From Cyanidioschyzon merolae (taxonomy: Eukaryota): a stretch of 64,000 nt of DNA. A program made the position numbers and the translations under genes. Location of the stretch: assembly GCA_000091205.1 (NCBI GenBank), contig AP006498.2. One strand, written 5' to 3'. The notes under the pieces are model-generated. The model worked only from the letters and a program-made list of their open reading frames with translations. It searched no databases and was not told where the DNA came from. Of this stretch, positions 7,549 through 52,372 are shown in pieces; within the stretch, counting starts at the first letter, position 1, and each line of letters opens with the position of its first letter.

Positions 7549-8619
7549 TCATTGCTTTCTTGGACGGTTACTTGCAGGTTGCAGGTCTATCTTCTTCTTG
7601 GTGTCTTCGTCTTTCTCGGATATTCCGTAGAGTTGCATCACGCTTTCCATATCTTCCGAGCCAATGGGCTTCAGCACAGCTCCCGTTGTGAAGAATGCGT
7701 CCATGCCGCCCAGGCCAATGACCGTGTCGCCGCTCTCTCTCCTCCCCGTAATCGGGACCTTCATGTGCCCATCGGGTTGAATTCTTAATTTTTTCAAGTT
7801 CGACGTACGTACTTTTCTGTCTACATACTTCTTTGTTTTATCCAGGCCATTATGAGTCACCATGCGAGTGAGGATCTCGACATCCGCAAACCCGTTCAAC
7901 TTGGAAGCCGATGTGCGTGTGGCGTCGATGGAAGCATTGAGCGCATGAGGTGTTTCCGGTATGCGCTCCGGCAGAGTGAGGACATGCAAGGCCGTAAGTG
8001 TCAGCAACGCCTCTAAGAAGTACCCGACTTTTACAAGAATCCCGCCGCACATGATGTTTGCGGTTACGATGGTGAGGTAAGCGCATCGCTGGAGCATGGT
8101 GCGAAAAAAAACATATTCCTGGACGCCAGCTGTCTGTTCCGGCGACAGCAACTACGTTCCGAGGTATCCCTTTATGATCATAGTGTCGCAGAGCAGCGAT
8201 GAGAACAGCTCCTCGTCCCAGAGAACGCCGAAGCAGTAATCTTCCTGTAGGAACGCGTTTCGTATGGTGCTGCCACATTCTCTGCGAGCGACAAACAGCT
8301 CTCTTCGAAACCAGCTGGGATCTTTTGGCGAGTCTTTCACAGTTGTTTCCCTGGCATACCTGGTTTGTACGGGCTGCGTGCCTCCATTAATAAACAGGTC
8401 ATTAATCCGTATCCTTAATGCATTATTTTCCGTTTTTGGTATGCCTCTTCTAGAATCCACGATTAGAGAACGTCGGCGACTTCTTGCAAAACCTGCGCAG
8501 GCGAGTGCGGCAGCCGCAGTCGCTATGCCATGAGCGTCGAGCACTTGTTCGTTTCGGGGACGATCTTTATGATGGAAACTTGCATTTGATTCCATGAAAC
8601 AGCTTTTCAAGGTCCCCAA
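7549..8619 (-). other. 1.07-kb reading frame on the minus strand interrupted by a single in-frame TAG (8152..8154). Either an intron-containing or pseudogenised host gene, or the middle part of the degenerate family-2 TnpB-like element spanning 6286..9164
   Basis: ORFs 8152..8619 and 7549..8151 are in the same frame and separated only by a TAG. The protein contains 'DTVIGLGGMDAFFTTGAV', which weakly resembles the family-1 RuvC-I region 'FVVGLDTGKTNIMAITA'. It lies between family-2 N-terminal (8650..9164) and C-terminal (6286..6753) relics on the same strand. Confidence 0.25.
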
Positions 8620-13889: not shown

Positions 13890-14149
13890 GTGAGGACCTG
13901 TACGGCGGGGGAAATATTAGCGGGAGAACGACGACATGCGCCCCTATGTCAACGTGTTCTGAACGTTTCGGCGATCCTTCCACTGGATCGATCGTTACTT
14001 TTCCGGATAGAAGAAACTCCATCGATGGGGTTCAAACACGGACACTTCGAAGGAATAAAAAAGCAACGTTAGCCCGATAGAATTGGCAAAAGCTCGAACA
14101 CAAATGGAATGGTATTTACCATTTCGTCCAAGGGAAGGAGGTCACCACA

Positions 14150-14700
14150 CGTCAGGAAAAAAGTTTCAATGATTCGAAAAAGTGGGCGCTGTTGTTTGAG
14201 CCTTCACTATGAGCGATACTGAGACCGCCAAACGAGTCCATCGCAGCTAGAACAGATGATGTCGGAGTTCTCTTTGAGTTCGACCCTGCATACAACAGGC
14301 TCCCTCTCCGCGAATACCCATGTACGCTCCGACGGTTCTGCCCGAGGGGAGTCTCATCGACTAAAAAATAAATCGACACACCTGTGCTTCTTACCTATCG
14401 CACGGTTTCAGGAAAGCTGTAGTCGCGATTCCTGTGGAAGATGGCGATGCCTGAAGCTGAACTTTTTTGCGACTGTATCTTAGTGTTTCCAAGACAATAT
14501 CAACAAGCTGCTGATAAACAGAGACGCCCGTGGCGACTAGTGTCGTCGCGTTTTGCTTTCCTTGAGGCGAGCAACGGGTCATTTTTATACGACTGACCGC
14601 AAACACGCTTTGACAATTCCAGGCTTTGGTGCGGAGCACACATACTTGTTTCTTTTAGTGTTCTTGAACGATCAGAGTATTGTGGTATGACTGACCCGAA
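14150..14700 (-). mobile_element. Tc1/mariner-like transposase relic (fragmentary)
   Basis: ORFs 14391..14639 and 14152..14379 (minus) read '...VLETLRYSRKKVQLQASPSSTGIATTAFLK' and '...VHGYSRRGSLLYAGSNSKRTPTSSVLAAMDSFGGLS'. These are homologous to the 2770..3306 relic. Confidence 0.4.
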
Positions 14701-32399: not shown

Positions 32400-32900
32400 T
32401 ACAGTCGTAAAAAAGTCCTAGTGCATGAACTAATATCTTGCACCGAAATCGCAGCGACAGAATTCCTCGCATCTTGCGATAGCTAAGAAGCACAGGGACG
32501 TCGATTTGTTTCTTCATTCGATGAGACTTGCTTCGGATGAAACCGTTGGAGCGTATATGGGTATTCGCGGAGCAGGGCGTCCGTTGTATGCACGGTCGAA
32601 CTCGAAGAGAACGATGGTATCATAACCTGTTCTAACTTTGATGGATACATTTGGCGGCCTCAATTTCGCTTGTAATGAAGGTTCGTATAACAGCAACAAC
32701 CACTTTTCCGAATCATAGAAGACATTTCCCTGTCGTCGGACGACGTCATTCTACTGGACGAAATAGTAATTCCCTACTCCATTTGCGTTCGAGCTTTTAC
32801 CGATTCTATTGGGCTAGAGGTGCTTTTCATTGCGCCGTACTCTCCGTGGGTCATCCCCATCGATCGATTGTTTGATATCGTGAGAAGTTATGATAGCTCC
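32400..32900 (+). mobile_element. Tc1/mariner-like relic fragment (transposase sense on +)
   Basis: The antisense ORF 32514..32699 reads 'LLYEPSLQAKLRPPNVSIKVRTGYDTIVLFEFDRAYN', homologous to 2756..2944 'LFHEPSLRENPRPPNISTAARTDDEIFLLEFDLIYN'. The 3' repeat segment follows at 33432..33767. Confidence 0.3.
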
Positions 32901-32983
32901 GCTGGGCGACTTGATGAATCATCAGCTCGCCTGATACGGGGGCACATGTCATCTTCTTCTGCAAGTCCTTCGGCTTCAGGGAA

Positions 32984-34065
32984 GGTCCTCACCTAAAGTC
33001 ATAAAAAATTGCGTTCATTGTCAAAAATAAAAATCCAAGGAATGCGATGGGGAGTGCACTTTAGAAGGTCGAGATAGAGAGCAGGCGGCGGAGCGCTTCG
33101 GCGATAGAAAAGCACAGAGAGCTGATTAAGCAGCAAATGGACAGAGGGCACGAGTTCGAGGACACCTTGCACTGGTAAGTTCCACCAGAGGCAATAAAAG
33201 CATGGAGTTCGTGAACGGAGAATTTAACGCCGCCATTAATGGCAGATGTGCGATGCTGGTGAAGAGACCCGAGGTGATTTTTTTCATATGACAAAACGTT
33301 TAGATTGATCATGGATCCCAGAATTCGGAAGAGATAATGGCTTTCAGGGAAGCGTCCATCATGAAGGACCCACCTTCAAGTTCCATCACTCATACGTCCT
33401 CTCGGATATACAGGTCGTTTCGTATGTTCTATCATGCGCCGAGTGCCTGGCGTGAACGCTCACCGTAGCGCCTATATACCGCTGAAGTAGATGCTGCACG
33501 GAGACAGAACGGGTTTGCCGTACCACTGAGGGCGTCGGCTCGAGGCGTGCTATATCCGACACGGAGCCGGACTACAAAATCATTCTGGGAGCCTGCAAAC
33601 TGTGCTGACAGACCTACTGCCTGCGGCAGCGCGATGCAATATACTAGGAGTCCACTGCGACCAGGGCGACGCCCAGATGCAGCTTTGCTGCGTCTACTCC
33701 CAGAATGAATTGCGTTCCAGACGAGCAGCTCAGGTTTCTTTAAAGAACCCACCACTGGAGGCAGCATGAAGCGCTAGCTAGCCCCGCAGACTCGTCCGGC
33801 TCGCGGGACCTTCCGCCTAGAGGGTAAATTTTCGAAGATACGGAAACTTTTCGCCATTTCAACGCTAACTATCAAGGTCGATAGAAACTGTTATCGATTT
33901 GCTAGTTAGCGGTTAGTTTCTGTTCTGTCACCCGAGGTGATGACGCAATACAGCTTTGTGAGACAGCCTCTCAGGCTCGAAGTATATTGGGATAAACTGA
34001 AACCGATAGCAGGCGACCGGTCAAAAAACCTGGGAGGGCCTGTGAGGGGGTATATATATGCACTC
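32984..34065 (+). mobile_element. Internally deleted Fanzor family-1 derivative (5' end joined to 3' end), split by an insertion of about 660 bp (33300..33960) that contains the Tc1-associated repeat
   Basis: Left end 'ggtcctcacctaaagtcataaaaaattgcgttcattgtcaaaaataaaaatcc' at 32984..33040, as in copy A. 33181..33290 encodes 'MEFVNGEFNAAINGRCAMLVKRPEV', a degenerate RuvC-III box. 33961..34065 is the conserved 3' tail 'agacagcctctcaggctcg...ccggtcaaaaaacctgggagggc'. Confidence 0.45.
33432..33767 (-). repeat. 3' repeat segment of the Tc1-like family, inserted within the Fanzor derivative
   Basis: 'GYSTPRADALSGTANPFCLRAAS' is homologous to 1971..2357 'GCTTPWADALCAMTKPFCLRA'. Confidence 0.35.
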
Positions 34066-34189: not shown

Positions 34190-34500
34190 TGGGAGCTCGA
34201 AAGCACGTGATCGCTCCTGATTGGAAAGCATCTCATATATGCAGGGTACCAGTACGACCGGAAGTTTTCTTGTGCGTTCATAGCACTTCCAATTGGGAAG
34301 CATCTCATATATGCACGGTACCAGCAAGACAGGAAGTTTTCTTGTGCGTTCATAGCACTTCTGATTGCGAAGCATCTCATGTTTGCAGTGTACCAGTAAG
34401 ACAGGAAGTTTTCTTATGCTTCCATAGCACTCCTCATTGGGACGCATCTCACGTATGCACATGGTGCTCGAGCTGGCGGTTCCGAGCGATGCACCTCTTC
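34190..34500. repeat. Tandem repeat, 72-bp unit x about 4.3
   Basis: Unit starts at 34225, 34297, 34369 and 34441 ('gaagcatctcatatatgcacggtaccag.aagacaggaagttttcttgtgcgttcatagcacttc..attg.'). Seen in the ORF track as the reiterated peptide 'EASHICTVPARQEVFLCVHSTSDC'. Confidence 0.8.
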
Positions 34501-35038
34501 GATAAGAGGCAGCGTAGGCTTGCTCAGACTCTGTTTGCGCCTTACCCTCAAGGAGCGTAGACTGGATTCGCTTGCCAGTGGTGCTTCCGAACTCTATGTA
34601 AATCGGAATTCAGAGTGCGGTGTCGGCCTAATTACCGCCTAAATGCATGAGTGATTGGAATGGAACATGGAACTGGTCGCCATGTTCCTAAATTTCGGAT
34701 TTTTCCGAACTTTGTTTCGTGGCACTGCCACCGCATTCGGAGTGCAGCAATAAGGACTTTTGGATTCATGCATAGTTTTCAGGTTTTCGGTCATTTTTTG
34801 GAATGGTTCCTTTGACGCTGTGCTGCTGAATTTCGTTAAGATACGGTCCTCAGGTGGATTCGCGACGTCCTCGAACAACGGTTCGAAGAATGGCCGGTTT
34901 TATCATCCCATTCAGGCGTGCAAGAATGCACGCTTCTCTTGTCCTCAGGCACAGCATGCGCAAAATACATATTCTTCTTTTTTTGATCCATCCGTTTGAC
35001 GGTTTCGCGTAGGCGCCGCACTTCGCACTGGTAGGTGC

Positions 35039-35930
35039 TCAAGGCAAAATCTTGACGTCTTCGCTTGAGGACTGGTTCGCGAGCTCATACCGAAAGTTCA
35101 CTGAACTTGGTACGTCAAGTAACGGATTTTGCTGGAAATGCAAATCCTCCTTTCTTGAAGGCAATCGGCGGAACGGGACGCAACAGCAGTTAGGTGTCGC
35201 CCTCGGGATATGCTCGCTGAACGCTCCCCTTCCTCTTTTGTTCGTGTGGCAAAGGGTTATGTGCTCGGATATGAGCCCTGACAAAGAACGCTTTCAGTGG
35301 AGCGCGCGTCACAGCTTTACATGAACGAGGCGTAGACGGATCGAAGCTTCTCGAATTGTCCTCCGACTTTGGGTTTTGTATTCAATACTTGTTTCATCAT
35401 GAGCAACGTCGCGTTCCACAGATCCTTTTTCGGATAGAACGGCGTACCGAGGAGTGTGCAGTGGACAACCTACTCACCGAGGGACTTACCCTGAAGAGGC
35501 TCGTAATCGTCCTGTACGGTATTGGGCACGGAAACGAAGGAAGGCATCAAAGGGCGCGCATTGAACCCGTCAAGGGTATATAACGGGCAATGAAGAGAGC
35601 GCTCTCGCGCTCAAGGGCAGCGCCCGAAGGACGAGTAGGATTAGCAAGAGGTGTACTGGTCCCATTGGAACACCTAACAGCAGTCAACTGCCACCGCTAC
35701 GAAGCCGGCTTTCAGGCTTTATGCACAGATGATGAAAATGGCAAGTCAAGCGTAGCTCGCAATTTCCACCTGCACATGAAATGCATAGACAAGTTCCCGA
35801 AGCGGTAAAACCGGGACATGCACACTGCCATCAGCATCCTTCGACTGATAATAACAGAGCTGGGAGACAAGAGAGATCGGTGTATTTAGGGCCGGAGACA
35901 CAATAGAGGTCCAGGGAGCACTCATGGATG
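35039..35930 (+). pseudogene. Degenerate family-2 TnpB/Fanzor-like element: repeat X (35039..35324) plus a RuvC-like C-terminal fragment (35356..35808) and a 3' tail
   Basis: 'LVIVLYGIGHGNEG'. 'GVLVPLEHLTAVNCHRYEAGF' resembles a RuvC-II 'EYRTSKVC'-like box. 'RNFHLHMKCIDKFPKR' is homologous to 43902..44246 'RSLNLFVKCANKYRKRVHWDVKSAINILRQ'. The tail 35810..35930 resembles 44190..44310. Confidence 0.35.
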
Positions 35931-36266
35931 AGGCCTCCAAAGGCCGCTTTTGACGGCACTGAGTGCTATCTAAATATTAGTGTGCACGGTCGAGTTAGAC
36001 GATCCGTTCCATTTTATTCTTGCATGGGTATAAATAGATGAGCATGTGAGTCGAACCACCGCTAACAGGAACTCGAAATGCTCTGGCGGCGGTCCGGGTG
36101 CACTGGTCAACAAGTGACGCCATGGCTTACGCCACGAAAGGTAAAACCCGTATTGGGATGATCTGTACGGTCGCTTTCGGGCTCGGGTACCCTAGAAGCT
36201 TTGCGTTCCGTTCGTGCGCTTCGTTGCCTGGTTGTGAGTTTTCTATAGGTACGAGAAGCTCAGCGA

Positions 36267-39147: not shown

Positions 39148-39331
39148 TGTTCCACGTGGTGCTACCCTCGCTTTTTCGACTCGCCGCTCAGCGCACAGAC
39201 ACAGTTACTATTAAAGAAAGCGCTTGGGTGACAAGCTCTGAGCCAAGCGGAAAGCTAACGTTGACCAGAAAAGCAGCAGCAGCAGCAGCGGGGTACTAAA
39301 GATCGTGTACCTCTCTAGTATTTCCGCTGCA

Positions 39332-40846
39332 ATGCATACGGGAATCGTGTTCACAAGCGGCGCACTTGCCCTGCACGATGGCGAGGTCGCGTTTGACTAC
39401 TGCGAGAATGCCAGGCGTGGACGAGGCTCTTTCCGGGACCAGCCTGAGAGTGCATTTTTGCTTTACAAGTCTAGAGCAGGCGTAAAAGCACAATACGCTG
39501 TGGAAGAGAGCGACAGGGGCTGGAGTTGCTCCCTGTGGGTAAAGCTGCGCGTCGGTCGCTCAGCTCGAAGCACTGCAGCTTTGGTACCGGAGCCTGACCC
39601 GCGGTACCTCGGGAAAAGTATGCTTGTCTGTGACCAGGTTTTCGCTATTGGTTTGAGTTGCGTTGATCTCGCGCTACACCAGGTAGACAGGCTGCCGCTG
39701 CACGCTGATGATCTCGTGCAGTTTTGTGGCGTTGATTTTGTACCTGGAGGCGGCGTCTACCACACGCTCGAGTCGCTCGCCAGTTTGCTGCGGTGTGCTG
39801 CAGACGAGGGCAATTCTACCGTTCCTCGGTTGCAAGCGGTCACGCTCGTCGGAGACGATATCTTTGGGAGGTTTTATGCACGCCGCGTTTCCGAAGATGT
39901 TTCACCAGAGGCTTCGCGGACCGTGGCTTTCACGAACGAGGCAAACACTGCACTCGCTGTGGTACCCATCTATCGCGACGGAAGTCGAGGCTGTTTCGTA
40001 GACCTTGGTGCGAATCGAGTGCTTTCCGGTGAGCGCATTGTGCAGAGTGTCGCGGAGCTTCTCGCTGGGGCGAAGTTGGCGCATAGCGCGGACACCAAGC
40101 CTACTGTGCTCGTACATCTCGCGTATCCGCATTTGCTGCCAATGCTACGAGGCGAACGACTCGAGGAGCTTTTCCGCGAGCTTACCATACAGGCTGGATT
40201 GGTAAATGCCGCTGCAGTTTTTAGCGTAGACGTGAATGGCGCCACCAGGGATTCTGGATCATCGACGGACATTAAAAAGGGTGCGCTCGAGTCTATTCTC
40301 CATCACGTGGATATTTTTCATGCGAACTACGAGGAAGCCTGTGCACTTCTGGACGAGCAAATGATCGTGACACGTGAGACCTCTGGAGCGGATCTGGAGG
40401 CAGCCACATCCTCTGCAGCGTTGGTGCACTGTGTTCGCGAGCACGGACGAAGGCTGCTTCAGCGCTTAAAGGACCGCTTCTTCAACCCTGCGTCTCCGGA
40501 GAAGAGCGGCGATCGCCTGCTCGTTGTTGGGGTCACGATAGGACGGGAAGGCGCATGGCTCGTGGCGGGCTCGCGAGACGACCTGCAGACTTTTACGTGC
40601 ACACAAGAGCAGTATATACCGCCACCGAGCATCCCAGACCAGCAGCGAATCAACGCAAACGGTGCAGGAGACGCGTTTGTGGCGGGACTGTGTTTTGCCT
40701 ACCTGCGGGCCAGTCGTGGGCGCGAATCAGGTACGCAGCGCCCGCAACGCTCCCCAGCAGCTTGGACACAGTTCTTTGCTGATAACGCTCTGAGAGCAGT
40801 CACTCGCAAACTCTCCATCAAACGAGGAAACCATGCGATCTGGTGA
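39332..40846 (+). CDS. pfkB-family carbohydrate/nucleoside kinase domain protein (504 aa)
   Basis: The C-terminal 'INANGAGDAFVAGLCFAYL' matches the pfkB signature 2 (DTxGAGDxF). The ORF-track start at 39305 is a GTG. The first ATG is at 39332. The N-terminal half is not assigned. Confidence 0.45.
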   Translation: MHTGIVFTSGALALHDGEVAFDYCENARRGRGSFRDQPESAFLLYKSRAGVKAQYAVEESDRGWSCSLWVKLRVGRSARSTAALVPEPDPRYLGKSMLVCDQVFAIGLSCVDLALHQVDRLPLHADDLVQFCGVDFVPGGGVYHTLESLASLLRCAADEGNSTVPRLQAVTLVGDDIFGRFYARRVSEDVSPEASRTVAFTNEANTALAVVPIYRDGSRGCFVDLGANRVLSGERIVQSVAELLAGAKLAHSADTKPTVLVHLAYPHLLPMLRGERLEELFRELTIQAGLVNAAAVFSVDVNGATRDSGSSTDIKKGALESILHHVDIFHANYEEACALLDEQMIVTRETSGADLEAATSSAALVHCVREHGRRLLQRLKDRFFNPASPEKSGDRLLVVGVTIGREGAWLVAGSRDDLQTFTCTQEQYIPPPSIPDQQRINANGAGDAFVAGLCFAYLRASRGRESGTQRPQRSPAAWTQFFADNALRAVTRKLSIKRGNHAIW

Positions 40847-40847
40847 T

Positions 40848-42107
40848 TTATTTTCTCTTGCCGGATCCTACAGCTTTCATGCTCGCTTGTGTGTCATTGC
40901 TGGCGGAATCAGCAACCGGAATCGATGCAGACTGCTTGGGCTGTTGGCTGCGAGCAAGGGGATTCGACATGCTTATGATCCGCTCGTAGTCTCTTGGCAA
41001 TAAATGTCTGACCGCGTCCCGCTCTTCAATAAGTTCTTTTCGTGTGCGCTCCATCATGCTGGCACTGAACTCGTCGACCGGGAGCTCCAAGATACGACGA
41101 AAATGTGCACCAGGGCAGAGGCAGGGCACGGAATACCAGAGACATGCATCGATTCCATACGAGCCATCACTTGGCACCGACATAGACAGCCACTTATTAC
41201 CAGCGCCGAGCCACAGATCCCGCATATGATCGATTGCTCCATTAGCCGCAGATGCGGCTGAACTGGCACCACGAGCCTCAATCACCTCCGCACCGCGTTT
41301 CTGAATCCGAGGGATGAACTCGTTTCTGTACCAGTCTTCATCGATGCGTGGACGGATCCATTCGCCGCGTACCAGGGCATGTGACAGATCTGGGTACTGC
41401 GTCGTCGAGTGATTACCCCAGATGATGACACGCTCCACCTCGGCGACATCACAGTGCATCTTCAGCGCAAGCTGCGTGATAGCGCGATTCTGATCGAGGC
41501 GGCTCATCGCGGTAATCTGCTCTGCCCAAATATCCGGAGCGTTTGCTGCCGCCACCAGCGCGTTGGTGTTCGCGGGGTTCCCGACGACGAGGACTCGGAC
41601 CTCACGCGACGCTACCTTGTTCAGTGCCCGACCTTGTTCAGCAAATATCTGCGCGTTAGAGGCCAGCAGATCGCGGCGCTCCATGCCAGGCCCTCGAGGC
41701 TTTGCACCGACCAGAATCGCAAAGTCTGCATCCGCAAAGCCCTTATCCACCTGGTCTGTCGCACTGACGCTCTTTAGCAGCGGAAACGCACAATCCTCCA
41801 GTTCCATAACGACGCCACGAAGCGCCTTCATGCCTTGTGGCGTCTCAATGCAGCTGAGATGTATCGGCTGATTCTTTCCCAACATTTCTCCCGAAGCGAT
41901 GCGGGTTACAAGTTGGTAGCCGATTTGTCCGGCAGCACCGGTGACGGCCACCCGCAAAGGCGGCAGCAGATCCGACAACTTTCCAACAGCACCACTACCA
42001 GAAGCAGCACCAGCAGCACTCTTAGGTGACGCGGTTGCCTCCGTTGCCAGCCATCTGCAACCCAGGCGTTGGACCAGCCTCGCTCCAAAGCGTCGTGCTA
42101 CGTTCAT
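40848..42107 (-). CDS. MDH: Malate dehydrogenase (LDH/MDH superfamily, cytosolic-type GAAGQIGY class) with N-terminal (about 45 aa) and C-terminal (about 60 aa) extensions
   Basis: '[15 protein letters not shown]', '[15 protein letters not shown]', '[13 protein letters not shown]', '[21 protein letters not shown]'. The ORF-track start at 42149 is a TTG. First ATG ([11 protein letters not shown]..., presequence-like) is at revcomp 42105..42107. Confidence 0.85.
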
Positions 42108-43149
42108 CAGCGAGTCAACAAGGGAGTTCAAGGCACCGTGCAGCAGCAAGTCAACCGTTTCAAGCGACGCGATGCGACTCGTGGTATCGATGATTCCTTC
42201 ATCGACGTCGTCGAGCGCTGGCGCTATATTCGTGGTGGCGGCGGCAGTGGCGGCGGCGGCTATTCGTCAACTGCCGTACGGCGTTACCGCCTCACAGGCG
42301 TGCCTCTCGAAGCTTGGACACAGAGGTAGCGGTGGTGTAGCGTGTGCGTCCGGGGAAACGGAAACGCTGACGCTTTGTGAACGCTGCTGCGGGATCGCAG
42401 TGACTGGGAGGGAGCACACGCCTCCGAGTCAGAGCACGTGCACGGGGTTGGCTAGCATAGTGCTGTGGAAGGCTGCTCGAGGCTGACAGCAGTCACCTGG
42501 GTACGAGCTCGCTGAAGAGAGTCTGAGGCAAGGCGCTTGCGGGAGTGGTGCGCTCTTGGCACAGCGATTTCACAACTGGGAAGCGAGTGCGGTAACGTCG
42601 GTGCGCGTGTTGCTAGGGCGGGGTGATGGCTGATGAGGAGGTACGTGGACCTGCGTGCCTGTGCTCCTGCTGTTTGGCATTGTGAGTGGGCGTGAACGTC
42701 GTATTTCGAGTTGACGGCACCCGGAGGTTCGCTGGATCGAGTCAGTATTCGTTAGCGAAGCAGTGCTGCGGGGTGTTGGCGTGCGATCGTGTGCGTTGTA
42801 GCAATAGCGCCGTTGTGCTAGTGACTTGCCGCGTGCATGAACCAAGCGTCCCTTCCTTGGCGGAGTACTCGCATGGTGGCCTTGGAGCTCGGAAGCGTCC
42901 CCAGAAGCAATGAAGTCCATGCTCTAAAGACTGGCAGTGTGCGCGTCTCTGGTGGCTTTTGGACAGAAGCACCGAACCTGGTCTACGCGCGAGAGAAATT
43001 AGAATGGAATACTGAACTGCATGCTCGATTCCTGCCTTGCGGATTCATTCCCGAACTTTTGTCATGTATACAGCTTCGATATCTGTAGTCCATGAAAGAG
43101 CTCTTTCGGATGCGAATGCGTCTTCGGACTCGCAATCGTCCATTTCGGA

Positions 43150-44310
43150 GTGACTCCATCGGCGCTGTGCTGCTCGAACTCAAAAAGTCACCGAAATCAA
43201 GACGATTCTCGACGCAGCAGAACGACGGTTCGTAAAATAACTGGTATCGTTATCCGACGCGCACGAACAAGCCTCCACTCTTGTCTGTTCCCTAGGTGTA
43301 GCATGCTCAGATCACGCAAGCTCCTAGTTTGCCGATCTTTCTGTTTTCAGGCAAATCGTAGAGACGGCAGTTGGCGCCGCAGGGATGGCGATCAGGAAAC
43401 TCAACGTTGTCACTTGACGGCTTGTTCACAAGATGGTGCCGAAAGCTCACTACACTTTTCATGTCTAATAATTGATTCCGTTCGAGCGACACATCCCGCT
43501 CTCTTCATGCCTATCGACGAGACTGAACTCGACAGCAGCCGCAGCAGCCGCAGCATGCTTCTGACGAGGTATGATCCCAGAGGCGTTCGTGTCTTCTGCT
43601 TCCATGGAAAAGCTTCTTGGACTCGGACGTCGATCATCGCAGCGACCGCTTCCATTTGCGAGCGGATCACCGGTTTGCACGAAGGGAGCGTAGACGGATC
43701 GAAATAGCTCGACTTGTCCCCGAGCCCGTATTTTCCTTCCGGTACTTGTTTCACCTTGGACAACACCGCGTTCCCCAAATCGTCTAAAGAATGGAGCAGC
43801 ATGCGCTTGTGCGTGCAAGGGACGGAGCACTCGCCGGCGTATTGTCCAGAACGGGCCCGTGATCGTTGGGTACGGCACCGGGTACGGAAACGGAGTAGCG
43901 CATGCTGGGCGATGCTTCTCCACTCGGAAAGGGCTTGTGCCAAGCGAGGCATTGTTCATTTATGCGCCAGGGGGCAGCGATCAGAGGAGGCATTGCGGGC
44001 GTATTGGAACACCTGGCCACAGCCAAGCGTCACCGCTGCGAATGGCGCACCCATTCTGTCTACGAAGACGGTGGAACTGGCAAGCGAAGCGCAGGTCGCA
44101 GCTTGAACCTGTTCGTCAAGTGCGCCAACAAGTACCGGAAGCGGGTGCATTGGGACGTCAAATCTGCCATCAACATCCTTCGGCAGCTGATAACGGAGCT
44201 GGAGCGACACGAGAGACCGGCATATTTCAAGCCGGATGCGCCATAGAGGAACAAAGAGCAGTCGTAGATACCGCGGGCAAAGGCTGGTGTCGTAGGTGAG
44301 AACTGGATGA
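43150..44310 (+). pseudogene. Degenerate family-2 TnpB/Fanzor-like element inside the left palindrome arm (mirrored copy at about 50241..51407, minus)
   Basis: Repeat X 43150..43707, then 'IVGYGTGYGNGV' (43859..), 'GVLEHLATAKRHRCEW' and 'VHWDVKSAINILRQ' (about 44163..44195, a degenerate NAAxNI RuvC-III box) across shifted frames. The tail 44255..44310 'gcagtcgtagataccgcgggcaaaggctggtgtcgtaggt' resembles the family-1 3' tail 'gcagtagtaggtgcccggtccatgaagactgggaggcgtccgtacgt'. Confidence 0.4.
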
Positions 44311-44637
44311 GACCCAGTATAATGATTACATATGCCCGAGTTTGTTAAGTGGAACGTTTCAATTTATTCTGAAATGGACGTAGGGCATCGATGTCCTTCA
44401 TCAAGCACCTTGTGCAGCACAGAAAATGAACCAGAATTGTTCGCTTGTGTGTCGAGGCGGCAAACTCCTCCGCACAATATCCCCGGCCGAAATGCTCTCA
44501 CACGGGCTCAGAGACATCTCTCTGGCATTGACATCCGATGCTCCAGGCTAGCTCGTACTAGGTGGCGCACTCTTCTAATACGAGACAGCAGACATGCACG
44601 TGTGTTGCACCGAGCGACAACGCGCCGGCGACGTCCT

Positions 44638-46014
44638 TCAGTAGCCCAGGTACCTCACTGGGGGTTTCTTCTTCCGACGTGTGCCGTCTGCGAAGCCGTC
44701 CCGACGATCATCGGTTTCATCGCTATCACCGCGTAGGTCGTGCACAAACCCCCGGAGGCTGGCCATCACTTTGTGGGCTTGGCGTCGCAGTTCAGCAGCG
44801 CGAAGCTGCTCGAATGCATCGTAGGTTCGCGAGCCGCTCGTTCCGACATCCCGCGGTCTACGCCGCAAGTGCTGAAACTTTTGCCATCCAGGAACCGCCT
44901 CATACCGGTGATCGCGCATAATTGGAAAGCAGTTGAAACCCTCCTCGCCGGGAAGTGGCTCCTCCGCAATAGACTCAATGGTGGGCAGTTTGATGCAGTG
45001 GTCATCCACCATCGTGGCAAAATCTACGCGTTGACTCGACAAATAATCGTCAAAGTCCAGGCTGTCAGGCGCAATGCGAAATACATTGGCAAGCTCGTCT
45101 GCGACATGCAGCCAGCCAATGTAGATGAGAAAAACAGAAAGCACGTAAATAATGTCCAGCCAGCGATAGTTTCCAATATCGATGCTGCTGGACGTTGCGC
45201 TCAATAAATTCAGATTTCCCGCGAGCAGTATGACACAAATCACGTAGATGCGCACTGTTGCGTTCACGAGCTGGCGGTACATCAGCGGAACTGGAACCCA
45301 CATGGGCACATATAAATAACCGAAATATCCGCGCACGAGCGCAAGCTGCTGCACAAGCTGAAGATGAACGAATTCCGTGATGCCGTAGCGGTGGTTCTGA
45401 TCACGCAGGCGAGAAAGCAAGTGCCCAGCCCACATGACTGGCATCGTCCACTGGGCTCTGTCTACATCATTCTCCAGCCGGTATCGCTCCTCAGGTGTGA
45501 TCAAGCCAATACGTTCCATGGCCTCAGTGGTGCGGTACGCATGATCACCGCCAAGAAAAACATCGCGAAGCACCATAGCGAACGGAATGCAGATCCACCG
45601 GACAATGAGTTGCTTCAACCGTGCAGCGCCGATAGGGTCGTTATCATCATACACGAAGGACGTCATCTCGAGAGCAATATTGTAGGCAGCGATTTGGCCA
45701 GTGCCACACATGACAACACGAACACTCCACCAACGGGAATAGATTGTGCTAGTATAAAACCCCAGCATAAAGGTAAGAATTGGCGAAAGGACACTGACAA
45801 GTGCTGCGAGAGTATTCAGGAAGGGTATCGGCCATTCTGCAACGTAGAGCTTGAGCGCTATCACGAGCACTGCGGCACCGATCCAGGAAAGAAGTTCAAA
45901 GAGCAACCGCTGGACCAATGAGCCGTACCAATGAAAGAAGACTCTAGTCCATGAAAGGGGAAATACATAGTCTTTCCCGAACGTGGCTATGGGATCCTTG
46001 TAGTAGATTGTCAT
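44638..46014 (-). CDS. Bestrophin-like (Bestrophin/RFP-TM/UPF0187 family) putative anion channel, 458 aa. Copy 1 of an identical pair
   Basis: 'LTFMLGFYTSTIYSRWWSVRV' matches the bestrophin 'F.LGFYV...RWW' motif. 'WLHVADELANVFRIAPDSLDFDDY' resembles the bestrophin 'NPFGEDDDDFE' box. Multiple TM helices. Genuine ATG (mirror of 48537). Confidence 0.7.
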   Translation of the reverse strand: MTIYYKDPIATFGKDYVFPLSWTRVFFHWYGSLVQRLLFELLSWIGAAVLVIALKLYVAEWPIPFLNTLAALVSVLSPILTFMLGFYTSTIYSRWWSVRVVMCGTGQIAAYNIALEMTSFVYDDNDPIGAARLKQLIVRWICIPFAMVLRDVFLGGDHAYRTTEAMERIGLITPEERYRLENDVDRAQWTMPVMWAGHLLSRLRDQNHRYGITEFVHLQLVQQLALVRGYFGYLYVPMWVPVPLMYRQLVNATVRIYVICVILLAGNLNLLSATSSSIDIGNYRWLDIIYVLSVFLIYIGWLHVADELANVFRIAPDSLDFDDYLSSQRVDFATMVDDHCIKLPTIESIAEEPLPGEEGFNCFPIMRDHRYEAVPGWQKFQHLRRRPRDVGTSGSRTYDAFEQLRAAELRRQAHKVMASLRGFVHDLRGDSDETDDRRDGFADGTRRKKKPPVRYLGY

Positions 46015-46353
46015 CTCTGGGAAACAAACGTGCCGCGTACCAGGTAAAGGCGTCGCTGGCCTGTGGAAACCTCTTCGGGCTCTTCAAATACGCACAAACA
46101 CCGCTTGGGTGCTTGCGCAACTCTGATTTGTGCTTTGGTCGTCGAACGGGGACTCGCTCGCTCTTGAACAGCAGCCGCACTCGAGCCGTGTGCACGTTTC
46201 CAACCTACGAAAACGCGAACTCCCGCTTCCAGCAGGTATCCTGATCTTGTTGCCTCTACGGTCAGGACGCGCAGTAAGCCTGGTTCACGTACGTACCGAC
46301 TATTTACCGGTGATAGTCGTCCGATCGCAGTGAGACCTACGGCGTCCCGTGTG

Positions 46354-47030
46354 TTTCGCAATCTGTCTGCAATAGCCGTTAGACAACCTGTTTATGGTTG
46401 CTTTGTGGCTCTGTGGCAAACACACACGCCGACACCGAACACTTTCCAAAAGTCGAACGACGCCAGCGCTGTACAGTACTGGCGAGAAGCCCGCCCTAGA
46501 CAAGAAGTCTCCAGCTGACGTACGGACGCCTCCCAGTCTTCATGGACCGGGCACCTACTACTGCTTCCAATTGTTTCTCATATAGTTCCACTTTGGGAGG
46601 TTGCCCCCACAAAATTCTCTCTTGTCAGCGCTGGAGGTCTGCTTTCCAGCACCGCACATCTCCTGATATTGATGGCGGCATTAAAGTCTCGGTTCACAAA
46701 CTCCATACGTTTCTTGCCATCACTGGTTGTACTCACTAGTGCGAGTAGCCCTCGAACTTTCGCCCTTGTTTCCATTTGCTCCTCCGTCAGCGGTCCGTAC
46801 TTTTCTATGTCTTCAGGGCTCCGCTGGCACTTTTCCATCCCGACCCTCTTAAGTACGCACCCCAGTTCATGGTGTGTATAGGACGTTCGGAACCCATCTA
46901 TCGGTATCGTAACAAAACGCTGTGCGCACTCCCTGTATGTTCTTGTCGACGGAGCTGGTACACATTCTTTTTGGGTCTTCCATCGCCCTGCTCCGTATGC
47001 CACTACGAGCCTCTGACGCTCGTCCTCCTT
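46354..47030 (-). mobile_element. Fanzor family-1 copy B: 3' half only (C-terminal about 150 aa plus conserved 3' tail), in the left palindrome arm
   Basis: ORF 46578..47123(-): '...KEDERQRLVVAYGAGRWKTQ...RFVTIPIDGFRTSYTHHELGC...SDGKKRMEFVNRDFNAAINIRRCAVLESRPPALTRENFVGATSQSGTI'. RuvC-III is intact (about 46651..46691). The RuvC-II position carries G ('IDGFRTS'). The tail 46354..46577 mirrors 47974..48197. Confidence 0.6.
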
Positions 47031-47039
47031 CATAATCCA

Positions 47040-48197
47040 TTTCCGTCTTCGATATTGTACGTGACGAAGCATGAAGATGAGAAGGAGGCGGGTCCTGCGA
47101 CGCAGAAAGTGCATGAGAACCACTTTGTCGTTGGCGCGGGCCCTGGGAACACGAATATCATGACCATCACAACACGCCGTTGTGGGGATGATGGCGTCGA
47201 CGGCAACTTACGTCAAAAAACACACGCGTGTTTTAAAGCGCTAAAGAACGAGATATTACCGAGAGTTCGGTGTGATGAATGCAAAGAAGAAAAGTGGAAC
47301 GTGGAGTGCTGGAGTGAAAAAGCACCTGGAAGCGATCAGCCAGGTGACGAGCCGAGAAGCGGACTTTAAAGCTTTTCGGAAATTCATGGAAGTTCGTGTT
47401 GCTCACTGGGATGCGCTGTGGGAGGGGCATACAAAGCCCCGGTGGGCTCGTCTGCGAATGAATCTATACTGTGGCAAGCAGCGCGCATTCGCGAACTTTT
47501 TCAACCAGCTGAGCGCCGTGAAGGAGGACGAGCGTCAGAGGCTCGTAGTGGCATACGGAGCAGGGCGATGGAAGACCCAAAAAGAATGTGTACCAGCTCC
47601 GTCGACAAGAACATACAGGGAGTGCGCACAGCGTTTTGTTACGATACCGATAGATGGGTTCCGAACGTCCTATACACACCATGAACTGGGGTGCGTACTT
47701 AAGAGGGTCGGGATGGAAAAGTGCCAGCGGAGCCCTGAAGACATAGAAAAGTACGGACCGCTGACGGAGGAGCAAATGGAAACAAGGGCGAAAGTTCGAG
47801 GGCTACTCGCACTAGTGAGTACAACCAGTGATGGCAAGAAACGTATGGAGTTTGTGAACCGAGACTTTAATGCCGCCATCAATATCAGGAGATGTGCGGT
47901 GCTGGAAAGCAGACCTCCAGCGCTGACAAGAGAGAATTTTGTGGGGGCAACCTCCCAAAGTGGAACTATATGAGAAACAATTGGAAGCAGTAGTAGGTGC
48001 CCGGTCCATGAAGACTGGGAGGCGTCCGTACGTCAGCTGGAGACTTCTTGTCTAGGGCGGGCTTCTCGCCAGTACTGTACAGCGCTGGCGTCGTTCGACT
48101 TTTGGAAAGTGTTCGGTGTCGGCGTGTGTGTTTGCCACAGAGCCACAAAGCAACCATAAACAGGTTGTCTAACGGCTATTGCAGACAGATTGCGAAA
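47040..48197 (+). mobile_element. Fanzor family-1 copy B-prime: 5'-truncated pseudogene (RuvC-I region through C-terminus plus 3' tail), spanning the palindrome spacer and right arm
   Basis: 46776-frame: '...HEDEKEAGPATQKVHENHFVVGAGPGNTNIMTITT', where RuvC-I Asp is replaced ('VGAGPG' versus 'VGLDTG' in copy A, about 47118..47145). It then shifts into the 47272..47973 frame: '...TWSAGVKKHLEAISQ...MEFVNRDFNAAINI...'. The region upstream of 47040 is the inverted arm, so the N-terminus is absent. The 3' tail ends with 'gattgcgaaac' at about 48187..48197. Confidence 0.6.
47974..48197 (+). ncRNA. Candidate omega-RNA-like conserved 3' segment of Fanzor B-prime (mirror copy at 46354..46577, minus)
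   Basis: Directly follows the stop at 47973: 'gtgggggcaacctcccaaagtggaac...agcagtagtaggtgcccggtccatgaagactgggaggcgtccgtacgt...ggctattgcagacagattgcgaaac'. It shares the conserved blocks of copy A and of copies at 56040..56150 and 63870..63985, and carries an extra insert of about 150 nt relative to A. Confidence 0.35.
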
Positions 48198-48536
48198 CAC
48201 ACGGGACGCCGTAGGTCTCACTGCGATCGGACGACTATCACCGGTAAATAGTCGGTACGTACGTGAACCAGGCTTACTGCGCGTCCTGACCGTAGAGGCA
48301 ACAAGATCAGGATACCTGCTGGAAGCGGGAGTTCGCGTTTTCGTAGGTTGGAAACGTGCACACGGCTCGAGTGCGGCTGCTGTTCAAGAGCGAGCGAGTC
48401 CCCGTTCGACGACCAAAGCACAAATCAGAGTTGCGCAAGCACCCAAGCGGTGTTTGTGCGTATTTGAAGAGCCCGAAGAGGTTTCCACAGGCCAGCGACG
48501 CCTTTACCTGGTACGCGGCACGTTTGTTTCCCAGAG

Positions 48537-49913
48537 ATGACAATCTACTACAAGGATCCCATAGCCACGTTCGGGAAAGACTATGTATTTCCCCTTTCAT
48601 GGACTAGAGTCTTCTTTCATTGGTACGGCTCATTGGTCCAGCGGTTGCTCTTTGAACTTCTTTCCTGGATCGGTGCCGCAGTGCTCGTGATAGCGCTCAA
48701 GCTCTACGTTGCAGAATGGCCGATACCCTTCCTGAATACTCTCGCAGCACTTGTCAGTGTCCTTTCGCCAATTCTTACCTTTATGCTGGGGTTTTATACT
48801 AGCACAATCTATTCCCGTTGGTGGAGTGTTCGTGTTGTCATGTGTGGCACTGGCCAAATCGCTGCCTACAATATTGCTCTCGAGATGACGTCCTTCGTGT
48901 ATGATGATAACGACCCTATCGGCGCTGCACGGTTGAAGCAACTCATTGTCCGGTGGATCTGCATTCCGTTCGCTATGGTGCTTCGCGATGTTTTTCTTGG
49001 CGGTGATCATGCGTACCGCACCACTGAGGCCATGGAACGTATTGGCTTGATCACACCTGAGGAGCGATACCGGCTGGAGAATGATGTAGACAGAGCCCAG
49101 TGGACGATGCCAGTCATGTGGGCTGGGCACTTGCTTTCTCGCCTGCGTGATCAGAACCACCGCTACGGCATCACGGAATTCGTTCATCTTCAGCTTGTGC
49201 AGCAGCTTGCGCTCGTGCGCGGATATTTCGGTTATTTATATGTGCCCATGTGGGTTCCAGTTCCGCTGATGTACCGCCAGCTCGTGAACGCAACAGTGCG
49301 CATCTACGTGATTTGTGTCATACTGCTCGCGGGAAATCTGAATTTATTGAGCGCAACGTCCAGCAGCATCGATATTGGAAACTATCGCTGGCTGGACATT
49401 ATTTACGTGCTTTCTGTTTTTCTCATCTACATTGGCTGGCTGCATGTCGCAGACGAGCTTGCCAATGTATTTCGCATTGCGCCTGACAGCCTGGACTTTG
49501 ACGATTATTTGTCGAGTCAACGCGTAGATTTTGCCACGATGGTGGATGACCACTGCATCAAACTGCCCACCATTGAGTCTATTGCGGAGGAGCCACTTCC
49601 CGGCGAGGAGGGTTTCAACTGCTTTCCAATTATGCGCGATCACCGGTATGAGGCGGTTCCTGGATGGCAAAAGTTTCAGCACTTGCGGCGTAGACCGCGG
49701 GATGTCGGAACGAGCGGCTCGCGAACCTACGATGCATTCGAGCAGCTTCGCGCTGCTGAACTGCGACGCCAAGCCCACAAAGTGATGGCCAGCCTCCGGG
49801 GGTTTGTGCACGACCTACGCGGTGATAGCGATGAAACCGATGATCGTCGGGACGGCTTCGCAGACGGCACACGTCGGAAGAAGAAACCCCCAGTGAGGTA
49901 CCTGGGCTACTGA
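48537..49913 (+). CDS. Bestrophin-like protein, copy 2 (identical to 44638..46014)
   Basis: Identical 458-aa translation. Genuine ATG at 48537. Confidence 0.7.
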   Translation: MTIYYKDPIATFGKDYVFPLSWTRVFFHWYGSLVQRLLFELLSWIGAAVLVIALKLYVAEWPIPFLNTLAALVSVLSPILTFMLGFYTSTIYSRWWSVRVVMCGTGQIAAYNIALEMTSFVYDDNDPIGAARLKQLIVRWICIPFAMVLRDVFLGGDHAYRTTEAMERIGLITPEERYRLENDVDRAQWTMPVMWAGHLLSRLRDQNHRYGITEFVHLQLVQQLALVRGYFGYLYVPMWVPVPLMYRQLVNATVRIYVICVILLAGNLNLLSATSSSIDIGNYRWLDIIYVLSVFLIYIGWLHVADELANVFRIAPDSLDFDDYLSSQRVDFATMVDDHCIKLPTIESIAEEPLPGEEGFNCFPIMRDHRYEAVPGWQKFQHLRRRPRDVGTSGSRTYDAFEQLRAAELRRQAHKVMASLRGFVHDLRGDSDETDDRRDGFADGTRRKKKPPVRYLGY

Positions 49914-52372
49914 AGGACGTCGCCGGCGCGTTGTCGCTCGGTGCAACACACGTGCATGTCTGCTGTCTCGTATTAGAAGAGTGCGCCACCTAGTACGAGC
50001 TAGCCTGGAGCATCGGATGTCAATGCCAGAGAGATGTCTCTGAGCCCGTGTGAGAGCATTTCGGCCGGGGATATTGTGCGGAGGAGTTTGCCGCCTCGAC
50101 ACACAAGCGAACAATTCTGGTTCATTTTCTGTGCTGCACAAGGTGCTTGATGAAGGACATCGATGCCCTACGTCCATTTCAGAATAAATTGAAACGTTCC
50201 ACTTAACAAACTCGGGCATATGTAATCATTATACTGGGTCTCATCCAGTTCTCACCTACGACACCAGCCTTTGCCCGCGGTATCTACGACTGCTCTTTGT
50301 TCCTCTATGGCGCATCCGGCTTGAAATATGCCGGTCTCTCGTGTCGCTCCAGCTCCGTTATCAGCTGCCGAAGGATGTTGATGGCAGATTTGACGTCCCA
50401 ATGCACCCGCTTCCGGTACTTGTTGGCGCACTTGACGAACAGGTTCAAGCTGCGACCTGCGCTTCGCTTGCCAGTTCCACCGTCTTCGTAGACAGAATGG
50501 GTGCGCCATTCGCAGCGGTGACGCTTGGCTGTGGCCAGGTGTTCCAATACGCCCGCAATGCCTCCTCTGATCGCTGCCCCCTGGCGCATAAATGAACAAT
50601 GCCTCGCTTGGCACAAGCCCTTTCCGAGTGGAGAAGCATCGCCCAGCATGCGCTACTCCGTTTCCGTACCCGGTGCCGTACCCAACGATCACGGGCCCGT
50701 TCTGGACAATACGCCGGCGAGTGCTCCGTCCCTTGCACGCACAAGCGCATGCTGCTCCATTCTTTAGACGATTTGGGGAACGCGGTGTTGTCCAAGGTGA
50801 AACAAGTACCGGAAGGAAAATACGGGCTCGGGGACAAGTCGAGCTATTTCGATCCGTCTACGCTCCCTTCGTGCAAACCGGTGATCCGCTCGCAAATGGA
50901 AGCGGTCGCTGCGATGATCGACGTCCGAGTCCAAGAAGCTTTTCCATGGAAGCAGAAGACACGAACGCCTCTGGGATCATACCTCGTCAGAAGCATGCTG
51001 CTGCTGCGGCTGCTGCGGCTGCTGTCGAGTTCAGTCTCGTCGATAGGCATGAAGAGAGCGGGATGTGTCGCTCGAACGGAATCAATTATTAGACATGAAA
51101 AGTGTAGTGAGCTTTCGGCACCATCTTGTGAACAAGCCGTCAAGTGACAACGTTGAGTTTCCTGATCGCCATCCCTGCGGCGCCAACTGCCGTCTCTACG
51201 ATTTGCCTGAAAACAGAAAGATCGGCAAACTAGGAGCTTGCGTGATCTGAGCATGCTACACCTAGGGAACAGACAAGAGTGGAGGCTTGTTCGTGCGCGT
51301 CGGATAACGATACCAGTTATTTTACGAACCGTCGTTCTGCTGCGTCGAGAATCGTCTTGATTTCGGTGACTTTTTGAGTTCGAGCAGCACAGCGCCGATG
51401 GAGTCACTCCGAAATGGACGATTGCGAGTCCGAAGACGCATTCGCATCCGAAAGAGCTCTTTCATGGACTACAGATATCGAAGCTGTATACATGACAAAA
51501 GTTCGGGAATGAATCCGCAAGGCAGGAATCGAGCATGCAGTTCAGTATTCCATTCTAATCTGATAGCCCCGTCGGCGACGAGGATCTCAGAGTCGGATTG
51601 CACCTGCACTGATTCCGGGGATCTTGGTGTGCATGATGGAAATCTTTGGAAAATGTTCTGCGAATGATGGAACACGGGAAGTGTTGGACGCTTCCACCGT
51701 GCGCCCAGCTCTTTCTGATGCCTCCGAAAATGGAATTTTCGGAGCGCTCTCGGACACTAGTCTTGTGTGCGGTGCTTTGCACTCGATGGACGCAAAGAGT
51801 ACCGAAGCGAATCCTCACGAAGTTACGGATTCGCGCTCATTCAAGCAATCCCGGAGACATACCATAGAGTTGACATCGACGTTGCGCTGCCTCGGACCTT
51901 ACCAGGGATTGGTCACAGCACAAACGTCGGCGTCGCTCATGCTGCAGCGCCGGCGCTCTAGGCTCACTGTGGGCCCCCCTATCAAGCACTTGGCCCCGGA
52001 GGATTGCACGAAGCGACGGTTATCTCCAAAGAAAAGCGCGCGTGGTTGTTGTTGGGGCTTGAAGATCTGTTGCCGCGGAATGGACGCTCTCTCTGATGCC
52101 GTCAACCCTCGCGCAGTCAAGGATTCCTTCGAGTGTGTAAACGAATCTACACACCCCTGTGGGAAATCGCTCGTGCGAGAGAAGATGTACTTTTAGGGAC
52201 AATAATGTATGTCTTGTACGTCCGTGCGCGTGGCCTCGACAGCAGCGCAGCACCTGCACCTTGCAGTCGTTTCGAGCGCGCAGCCAGTGCTTGTTGTAAA
52301 CGACCTAGTCTAGGGTTGCTGGGGCGGTCCTCGCGTCAGGCTGTCCGCCCGACACACCTTGCAATAGGCACC

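Follow-up and report, generated by a model that had tools for sequence, protein, structure and literature searches.

The window analyzed here is a 64,000-nucleotide stretch (contig AP006498.2) of nuclear DNA from chromosome 16 of Cyanidioschyzon merolae 10D, an intron-poor red alga. Four long open reading frames (ORFs) of the window correspond exactly to C. merolae 10D proteins (CMP182C, CMP188C, myo-inositol-1-phosphate synthase, and a bestrophin-like protein), and scans of the window with Rfam and for tRNAs found nothing. The window also holds four copies (A, A′, B, and C) of a repeat, here termed family 2, which is the subject of this report. When 43000-44400 was compared with the window by blastn, a mirror copy was recovered at 99.6% identity, together with collinear matches at 66–86% identity at 35286-35929 (+), 9128-8705 (−), and 6556-6521 (−). 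The initial annotation had listed four collinear pieces and assigned them to a second, degenerate TnpB-like family. These pieces are indeed copies of a single family of decayed transposons, but their true limits are wider than had been claimed (Table 1), and A and A′ are not independent because both sit in the arms of one palindrome. Copies A and B, as well as A, B, and C together, could be aligned full length over ~1.39 kb.

Fanzor1 proteins are eukaryotic relatives of TnpB. A pattern scan of metagenome contigs yielded 52 loci, which resolved into 17 distinct copies (three of them the orthologues of A, B, and C), and a family-2 consensus was derived as the majority base over the 17 independent copies after alignment. 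The C-terminal half of this consensus could be translated in one frame as '...KKPVIVGYGTGRGNGGGHRGEPSVPVKGMYRAMKQAF...VVDIWEHLTAVKCHRCE...LCMKCVDNSRKRRNRDLNAAINILRLLTTELEGQERPAYFKP'. Single family-2 copies matched nothing in Pfam; a four-copy consensus matched PF07282 (the Cas12f1-like TNB domain, formerly OrfB_Zn_ribbon) with 31.1 bits (E = 2.7e-7), and the 17-copy consensus did so with 27.7–28.5 bits (E up to 3e-6), these two independent builds both lying above the gathering score of 26.3. A hidden Markov model (HMM) of Fanzor1, built from 10 Fanzor1 proteins in the supplements of Bao & Jurka 2013, scored 58.4 bits (E = 7e-19) on the consensus, against 13 bits for copy A alone, with reverse-strand decoys below 0 bits. 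The C terminus also matched Cas12f2 weakly. The published Fanzor/TnpB signature comprises a RuvC-II glutamate in E-x-x-T-[ST]-x-x-C, a C4 zinc finger, x(5,50), and RD (Bao & Jurka 2013). The glutamate and the zinc finger are present in the consensus ('WEHLTAVKCHRCE...CMKC'), in copy A (LEHLATAKRHRCE), in copy B (LEHLTAVNCHRYE), and in P0176 (WEHLTTKKCYKCH), an intact relative described below, and the RD motif of RuvC-III follows 5–50 residues past the zinc finger in the consensus (RNRDLNAAINIL), B ('NRDMHTAISIL'), and A ('HWDVKSAINIL'). The amino-acid blocks quoted in the initial annotation are indeed present in the copies, and with PF07282 above its gathering score the boxes 'YG.GhGNG', 'LEHLT..CHRCE', and 'KC....NRD.NAAINIL' can be assigned to RuvC-II, zinc ribbon, and RuvC-III of Fanzor1/TnpB type. 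A RuvC-I motif ('DPG') 125–275 residues upstream of RuvC-II was not found in A, A′, or B, which lack that segment and carry a deletion junction there. A search of PDB sequences with single sequences and profiles of family 2 and of family 1 (CMe-1A, see below) gave no Fanzor/TnpB match; it failed for the published CMe-1 family too and is thus uninformative.

The N-terminal half ('repeat X'), which had been taken for the N terminus of a TnpB, proved to be an IS630/Tc1-mariner DDE transposase read partly in the wrong frame, the first half of repeat X (LEDSFTSSCRKHTELV) being a shifted-frame reading of it. On the consensus frame, Pfam DDE_3 (PF13358) scored 37.5 bits (E = 2.7e-9; cut-off 28.6), rising to 53.7 bits (E = 2.6e-14) when the continuation of the frame in copy C was appended; on the same extended frame, the NCBIfam IS630 model (NF033545) gave E = 1.9e-16 at 60 bits, which lies below its equivalog cut-off of 100. 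Initial matches of the consensus to the DDE_3 and IS630 models were weak and prompted a test of the mariner transposases of PUl-1 and PUl-2. That of PUl-2 aligned by tblastn with the consensus over 115 amino acids in a single frame and without gaps (E = 6e-6), the aligned stretch covering 'FVAIDETAF', then 'GYAPRGSR' and 'VIAAIASSGA', up to FPSGTCFIMDNIAFHKS. First and second catalytic aspartates are found in the consensus ('IDET' and 'MDNIAFH'), and the transposase frame of copy C runs on into its extra segment with IIVYITTYSPWLN, whereby a third catalytic motif ('YSPWLNTNM') is reached 35 residues past the second aspartate, its acidic residue replaced; ~34–37 residues are expected between the second and third catalytic positions of a DDE triad. 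Assignments of 'IDET' as RuvC-I and of FSFRYLFHHGQHR as a Fanzor helix were dropped after the comparison with mariner transposases, as they represented the wrong frame or the wrong protein. As a separate observation, two 15-nt stretches of copy A (CTTCCGGTACTTGTT / AACAAGTACCGGAAG, at 43736-43750 and 44127-44141) form a perfect inverted repeat that joins the region of the second transposase aspartate with that of the Fanzor zinc ribbon; by chance, ~0.001 pairs of this kind would be expected in 1.4 kb, and the consensus retains 12 of the 15 positions.

Copy C carries ~2.08 kb absent from A and B (~8700 to ~6620). A phmmer search of 1.84 billion representative proteins with its 200-amino acid ORF (7552-8151, −) recovered two intact proteins, P0176 (756 amino acids, E = 1.2e-14) and P0183 (682 amino acids), whose C termini read 'KPVIIGYGTGKGNGGGHKGEPAVPVKAMYRAL...GVLDIWEHLTTKKCYKCH...RNRDFNAAINIL'. 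P0183 itself carries PF07282, and identity to the family-2 consensus is 50% over 153 amino acids for P0183 and 41% over 219 amino acids for P0176. By tblastn, both proteins aligned collinearly to four stretches of copy C. The initial annotation was right to suspect that copy C is the longest (3.43 kb, near full length) and that its TAG-interrupted ORF is part of the nuclease, given the match to P0176 residues 34–271 (Table 1). The stretch proposed there as RuvC-I, 'VIGLGGMDAFF', corresponds in the intact relatives to approximately residue 220, and 'GLDPGR', their RuvC-I motif (residue 445 in P0176), follows more than 200 residues later. Searches with the Fanzor1 HMM and pairwise comparisons gave no convincing RuvC-I remnant in C, and neither the window nor 58 fetched loci contained a further copy of the internal 2.08 kb, except the orthologues of C itself. 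Another intact Fanzor of family-2 type, P0187 (758 amino acids), was located in a metagenome locus of 33% G+C (L063), where it lies between 95-bp terminal inverted repeats (TIRs) at 306-401 and 2945-3040 (87 of 95 positions identical), a transposase gene being absent; this element may still be mobile and coding. On a separate metagenome contig, a DDE_3 gene lies directly upstream of a family-2-type Fanzor fragment on the same strand, which supports a two-gene layout.

The family-2 consensus starts with 'ACCCGTGTCAGA...', and the reverse complement of its right end reads CCCATGTCAGAATAAAATGGAAC, in agreement with its left end (CCCGTGTCAGATGAAAATGGAAC), i.e. the element is bounded by inverted repeats. 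The repeat is still visible in copy B (34646-34666 / 36006-36026, 21 nt at 71%, plus an adjoining 16-nt pair at 81%), and copies A and B as well as several metagenome copies have TA at either end. The 3′ tail consists of the last part of the Fanzor reading frame followed by the right terminal repeat. In the short copies, the transposase is joined just past its second aspartate to the last ~150 Fanzor residues. The junction falls at the same place of the alignment in every short copy, the 2.08-kb segment being confined to C and its orthologues, and therefore one deletion derivative has spread.

All 20 family-2 copies inspected contain stops and frameshifts, with a long intact ORF in none. The differences among A, B, and C showed no codon (three-base) periodicity, so that these copies drifted as pseudogenes. 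When a three-copy consensus was used in a word-seeded search of 5.8 billion proteins, only two fragments of the same family were recovered, and neither protein searches with the consensus nor the copies inspected revealed an intact family-2-type Fanzor in the C. merolae lineage. Every copy of this lineage that was inspected is a pseudogene under neutral drift. As a matter of method, a consensus of decayed copies gave two clear domain assignments where single copies gave none, and the same approach corrected a plausible misreading of the N-terminal half.

Table 1. Coordinates of family-2 copies and their features in the window
Feature	Position	Strand	Basis or remark
Copy A, short internally deleted form (1.39 kb)	42986-44380	+	TA on both sides (42984-85, 44381-82); alignments
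Copy A′, mirror of A in the other palindrome arm	50171-51571	−	Same as A from 51559 inwards save a 6-bp CAG-repeat indel
Copy B, short form, TIR still visible	34642-36030	+	TA at 34640-41 and 36031-32
Copy C, near full length (3434 bp), with remnants of transposase and then Fanzor1 between left and right repeats	9478-6045	−	
IS630/Tc1-mariner transposase remnant in A ('repeat X')	43020-43780	+	DDE_3, IS630, PUl-2 tblastn
First catalytic D in A, 'PIDETELD'	43510-43533	+	
Second catalytic D in A, 'FTLDNTAF'	43750-43773	+	
Deletion junction of the short form in A	43780-43830	+	C carries ~2.08 kb more here (~8700 to ~6620)
Fanzor1 C-terminal remnant in A	43830-44246	+	PF07282, Fanzor1 HMM; P0183 50% over 153 amino acids
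'VIVGYGTG' strand in A	43859-43882	+	
RuvC-II and first CxxC in A, VLEHLATAKRHRCE	44001-44042	+	
Second zinc knuckle in A, 'FVKCANKY'	44112-44135	+	
RuvC-III in A, 'HWDVKSAINIL'	44148-44180	+	
3′ tail of A	44247-44380	+	First part still coding in the consensus (basic C-terminal extension)
Right TIR in A	Last ~28-45 nt of 44247-44380	+	Consensus '...TTCTGACA(T/C)GGGTGTA'
RuvC-II in B, PLEHLTAVNCHRYE	35662-35703	+	
RuvC-III in B, 'NRDMHTAISIL'	35809-35841	+	
Transposase catalytic core remnant in C	8977-8624	−	DDE_3 rises to E = 2.6e-14 with the C continuation
First catalytic D in C, 'FFASIDATPLL'	8977-8945	−	
Second catalytic D in C, 'FITDNITFHQ'	8740-8711	−	
Third motif in C, YITTYSPWLNTNM	8662-8624	−	35 residues past second D; acidic residue lost
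Fanzor1 N-terminal (non-RuvC) region in C	8262-7561	−	P0176 34-271, E = 7e-24; P0183 28-237, E = 1e-18
'VIGLGGMDAFF' in C	7722-7690	−	
Fanzor1 'TDG' ('SIETDG') motif remnant in C, upstream of RuvC-I, SIETDRVIVSIAI	7183-7091	−	Matches SIETDGVGMSIVL of P0176 (E = 0.01), P0183, P0178; collinear
Fanzor1 C-terminal remnant in C	6648-6225	−	P0176 547-636 (E = 2.5e-12) to 6648-6394; RuvC-III region 6359-6225
C-terminal box in C, FVIIAYGTGCGNGG	6558-6517	−	
RuvC-III in C, 'QDPNAAIDD'	6263-6237	−	

Family 1 is CMe-1A of Bao & Jurka 2013, in which it was the sole Fanzor1 family reported for C. merolae (3169 bp, ~150 copies, no terminal repeats). The two families are distinct, as had been proposed, and share no DNA similarity; in a comparison of profiles, hhalign gave a weak local match with a probability of only 6%. 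It had further been proposed that the tail after 44246 is related to the family-1 tail and that both families share a 3′ RNA-like module as their conserved core. The tails of the two families gave no significant alignment, local alignments being no better than those of shuffled sequences (p = 0.12–0.20 for the part after RuvC-III, 0.40 for the non-coding part), and because the tails are not detectably homologous the argument for a shared RNA module has no basis. Within family 2, other parts of the element are better conserved than the tail, which ranks below the transposase core, and the CMe-1A 'tail' is largely coding, with a reading frame that ends in '...EAVVGGRSKKTGRRLHVSWRRFV' and a stop. 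Folding compared with shuffled sequences gave z = −2.0 for the family-2 consensus tail and −2.4 for the other tail, values that are slight and not decisive. The non-coding tail of family 2 does contain a motif, CCCAaaCtTtaGtGaATACGCC, that is common to the tails of intact relatives (33% and 59% G+C; p = 0.011–0.023 per pair), and in L063 this motif is the inner part of the 95-bp TIR at both ends.

Several observations concern CMe-1A itself. The 3′ fragment of one CMe-1A copy is directly followed, at 33240-33560, by the 5′ end of another element of CMe-1A / TE-N2_CMe type ('ATGACAAAACGTTTAGATTGATCATGGATCCCAG...'). In a metagenome contig from a related organism (L005, ~1150-1421), the right end of a family-2 copy adjoins a CMe-1A fragment that starts with 'KHEDEKEAD', and the CMe-1A copy at the palindrome center (47033-47060) is truncated at this very point. 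Exactly this unit, 'K.EDEKEA.PATQKVQDNDFVV', is duplicated in tandem in intact CMe-1-like proteins. The 'KHEDEKEAD' point of CMe-1A looks like a recombination-prone spot.

We consider it very probable that family 2 is a decayed IS630/Tc1-mariner DNA transposon whose full form carried a DDE transposase and a Fanzor1 between TIRs and whose short form arose by internal deletion. The full form, as in copy C (3.43 kb), would have held two genes in the same orientation, the transposase first and then a Fanzor1 of ~700 amino acids. By analogy with its family, the transposase would have bound the terminal repeats and inserted the element into TA sites by a cut-and-paste mechanism, and published work on Fanzors suggests that the Fanzor1 was a passenger RNA-guided nuclease. 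An internal deletion of ~2.08 kb would then have removed the C terminus of the transposase, as well as the N-terminal three quarters of the Fanzor including RuvC-I, to leave a 1.39-kb non-autonomous derivative that spread, presumably mobilized in trans, and gave rise to A, B, and most of the metagenome copies. Intact relatives of the Fanzor gene survive in other organisms. Several points weigh against this account. The full-length form is known from one copy only, and the middle of that copy is heavily decayed; its best RuvC-I candidate, 'VSTKPGR' near 6850, has lost the aspartate, scores low, and is separated from the TDG motif by a longer distance than the RuvC-I of the intact relatives. Copy C has CG in place of the right-hand TA, and the TA target-site duplications are deduced from decayed ends. 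A guide RNA of family 2 is putative. Finally, not all members of this lineage have the two-gene form, since P0176 and P0187 sit in Fanzor-only elements that have 95-bp repeats but lack a transposase.

These same Fanzor-only elements, having 95-bp repeats of their own, would fit a different origin, whereby an old Fanzor1-only element and an unrelated mariner-like element came to lie one inside the other by chance and the junction of the short copies is an insertion boundary; chimeric Fanzor elements are common (Bao & Jurka 2013). Such nesting is nevertheless improbable. The left end on the transposase side recurs in inverted orientation as the right end on the Fanzor side, the internal junctions showed neither a further pair of termini nor a duplication, and the 17 distinct copies align over the junction at one place. 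Moreover, DDE_3 also lies immediately upstream of this type of Fanzor on a second, independent contig. Still harder to uphold is the idea that the short form remains functional, for example with its 3′ end acting as a guide (omega-like) or regulatory RNA for nucleases encoded elsewhere in the genome: the 25–35% divergence among copies bears no sign of constraint, conservation is lower in the tail than in the transposase core, and no intact family-2-type Fanzor was found in the C. merolae lineage. The CCCAaaCtTtaGtGaATACGCC motif that the tail shares with intact relatives, as well as the slightly better folding of the consensus tail than of shuffled sequences (z = −2.0), would agree with a retained function, but the occurrence of the motif in the TIR at both ends in L063 could be explained by a transposase binding site.

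The reading of the initial annotation, in which the entire 1.2-kb block would be a single degenerate TnpB-like gene that has its own N-terminal domain, 'IDET' or 'VIGLGG' as RuvC-I, and a 3′ RNA module homologous to family 1, is now scarcely credible. Once read in the correct single frame, the N-terminal half represents a DDE_3/IS630 transposase (E = 1e-9 to 1e-16) that includes the second catalytic 'DNxxxH', and the intact relatives have their RuvC-I ('GLDPGR') in a segment that is absent from the short copies. 'VIGLGGMDAFF' lies too far upstream of that motif (more than 200 residues), and the tails are similar to no greater degree than by chance. This leaves the spacing from 'IDET' to the RuvC-II glutamate (~150 amino acids), which resembles that of CMe-1, a weak collinear hhalign match to family 1 near 'VIVGYGTG' (E = 0.006, probability 6%), and a tblastn match between a family-1 copy and the C terminus of the three-copy consensus (E = 1.5e-4) as the points in its favor.

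Copies A and A′ lie in a near-perfect palindrome of 8.56 kb (42998-51559), with arms at 42998-47032 and 47519-51559 around a spacer of 486 nt (47033-47518); the arms differ only by one 6-bp indel in a CAG-repeat microsatellite. It carries two identical bestrophin-like genes under two NCBI accessions, and its center is inside a CMe-1A Fanzor copy. Its outer edges coincide with a transposon end, falling ~12 nt within the left terminus of copies A and A′ of family 2. Metagenome contigs of related strains (99.3–99.5% identical) reach the spacer from both arm orientations, and the palindrome is therefore real and common to strains. The identity of the arms, set against a difference of ~0.5% between strains, hints at gene conversion. 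Elsewhere in the window, three tandem 72-nt units (82–100% identical) were noted at 34220-34435, ~200 nt upstream of copy B. Another dispersed repeat family (2648-3130, 14119-14553, and 32510-33033; 72–81% identity, both orientations) is not family 2 and not obviously the coding part of CMe-1A. Two convergent long ORFs, 39305-40846 (+) and the malate-dehydrogenase-like 40848-42149 (−), have ends one base apart (40846-40848).

Family 2 is a second Fanzor1-bearing transposon family for C. merolae, for which the published survey had CMe-1A alone. Its two-gene mariner/IS630 type has already been described in oomycetes, fungi, and algal viruses, and the finding leaves the understanding of Fanzor systems unchanged; its use lies in repeat annotation in a model red alga and in the natural history of the capture of Fanzors by DDE transposons. 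Elements bounded by TIRs in genomes of 59% and 33% G+C encode intact proteins of 682–758 amino acids (P0183, P0176, and P0187), and further JGI metagenome contigs hold decayed family-2-type fragments, one of them beside a DDE_3 gene. The lineage might still be alive outside C. merolae, with the CCCAaaCtTtaGtGaATACGCC motif, which spans the stop codon and the inner terminal repeat, perhaps forming part of a guide-RNA scaffold; we regard this as a speculative and rather doubtful proposal. If it were true and heat- and acid-loving red algae turned out to be the hosts, the proteins would be candidate thermotolerant eukaryotic RNA-guided nucleases.

Among known systems, CMe-1A resembles family 2 in host and superfamily, with 'VDEFRTS' as RuvC-II and 'NRDFNAAINI' as RuvC-III, but has no transposase and no TIRs and has lost its zinc-finger cysteines, whereas family 2 has kept CxxC...CxxC, has TIRs and, around its better-preserved copies, flanking TA, and is nearer to P0176, P0183, and NOc-1-like Fanzors. 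Bacterial TnpB (IS200/IS605, IS607) and Cas12f have the same C-terminal TNB/zinc ribbon, RuvC-II, and RuvC-III; family 2 differs in being eukaryotic, in the much longer N terminus of its intact relatives, and in its DDE transposase and TIRs in place of TnpA and hairpin ends. In SPu-1 / SpuFz1 of Spizellomyces punctatus and other Fanzor-only elements, a Fanzor1 ORF lies between TIRs with TA duplications, a layout shared by P0187 and unlike that of copy C, which has a transposase remnant as well. RNA-guided activity was reportedly shown for SpuFz1 by Saito and colleagues in 2023. The closest layout is that of PUl-1 and PUl-2 from Pythium ultimum (Bao & Jurka 2013), in which an IS630/mariner-like DDE transposase is followed by a Fanzor1 in elements of 3.6–3.8 kb (3.43 kb for copy C) with TIRs of 24–33 bp and TA duplications; the PUl-2 transposase aligns with family 2 over 115 amino acids, and the C terminus of the PUl Fanzor aligns as well. 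Family 2 departs from them in its red-algal host, in the death of all copies, in the dominance of the 1.39-kb deletion derivative, and in a protein identity of only ~23–27%. Mariner-type Fanzor1 elements, with or without their own transposase, have TIRs of 24–133 bp and TA duplications and include PUl-1, PUl-2, PUl-4, ROr-1 to ROr-3, and SPu-1 (Bao & Jurka 2013, Mobile DNA 4:12). Family 2 belongs to this described type, new only as a family and for C. merolae, where it is extinct.

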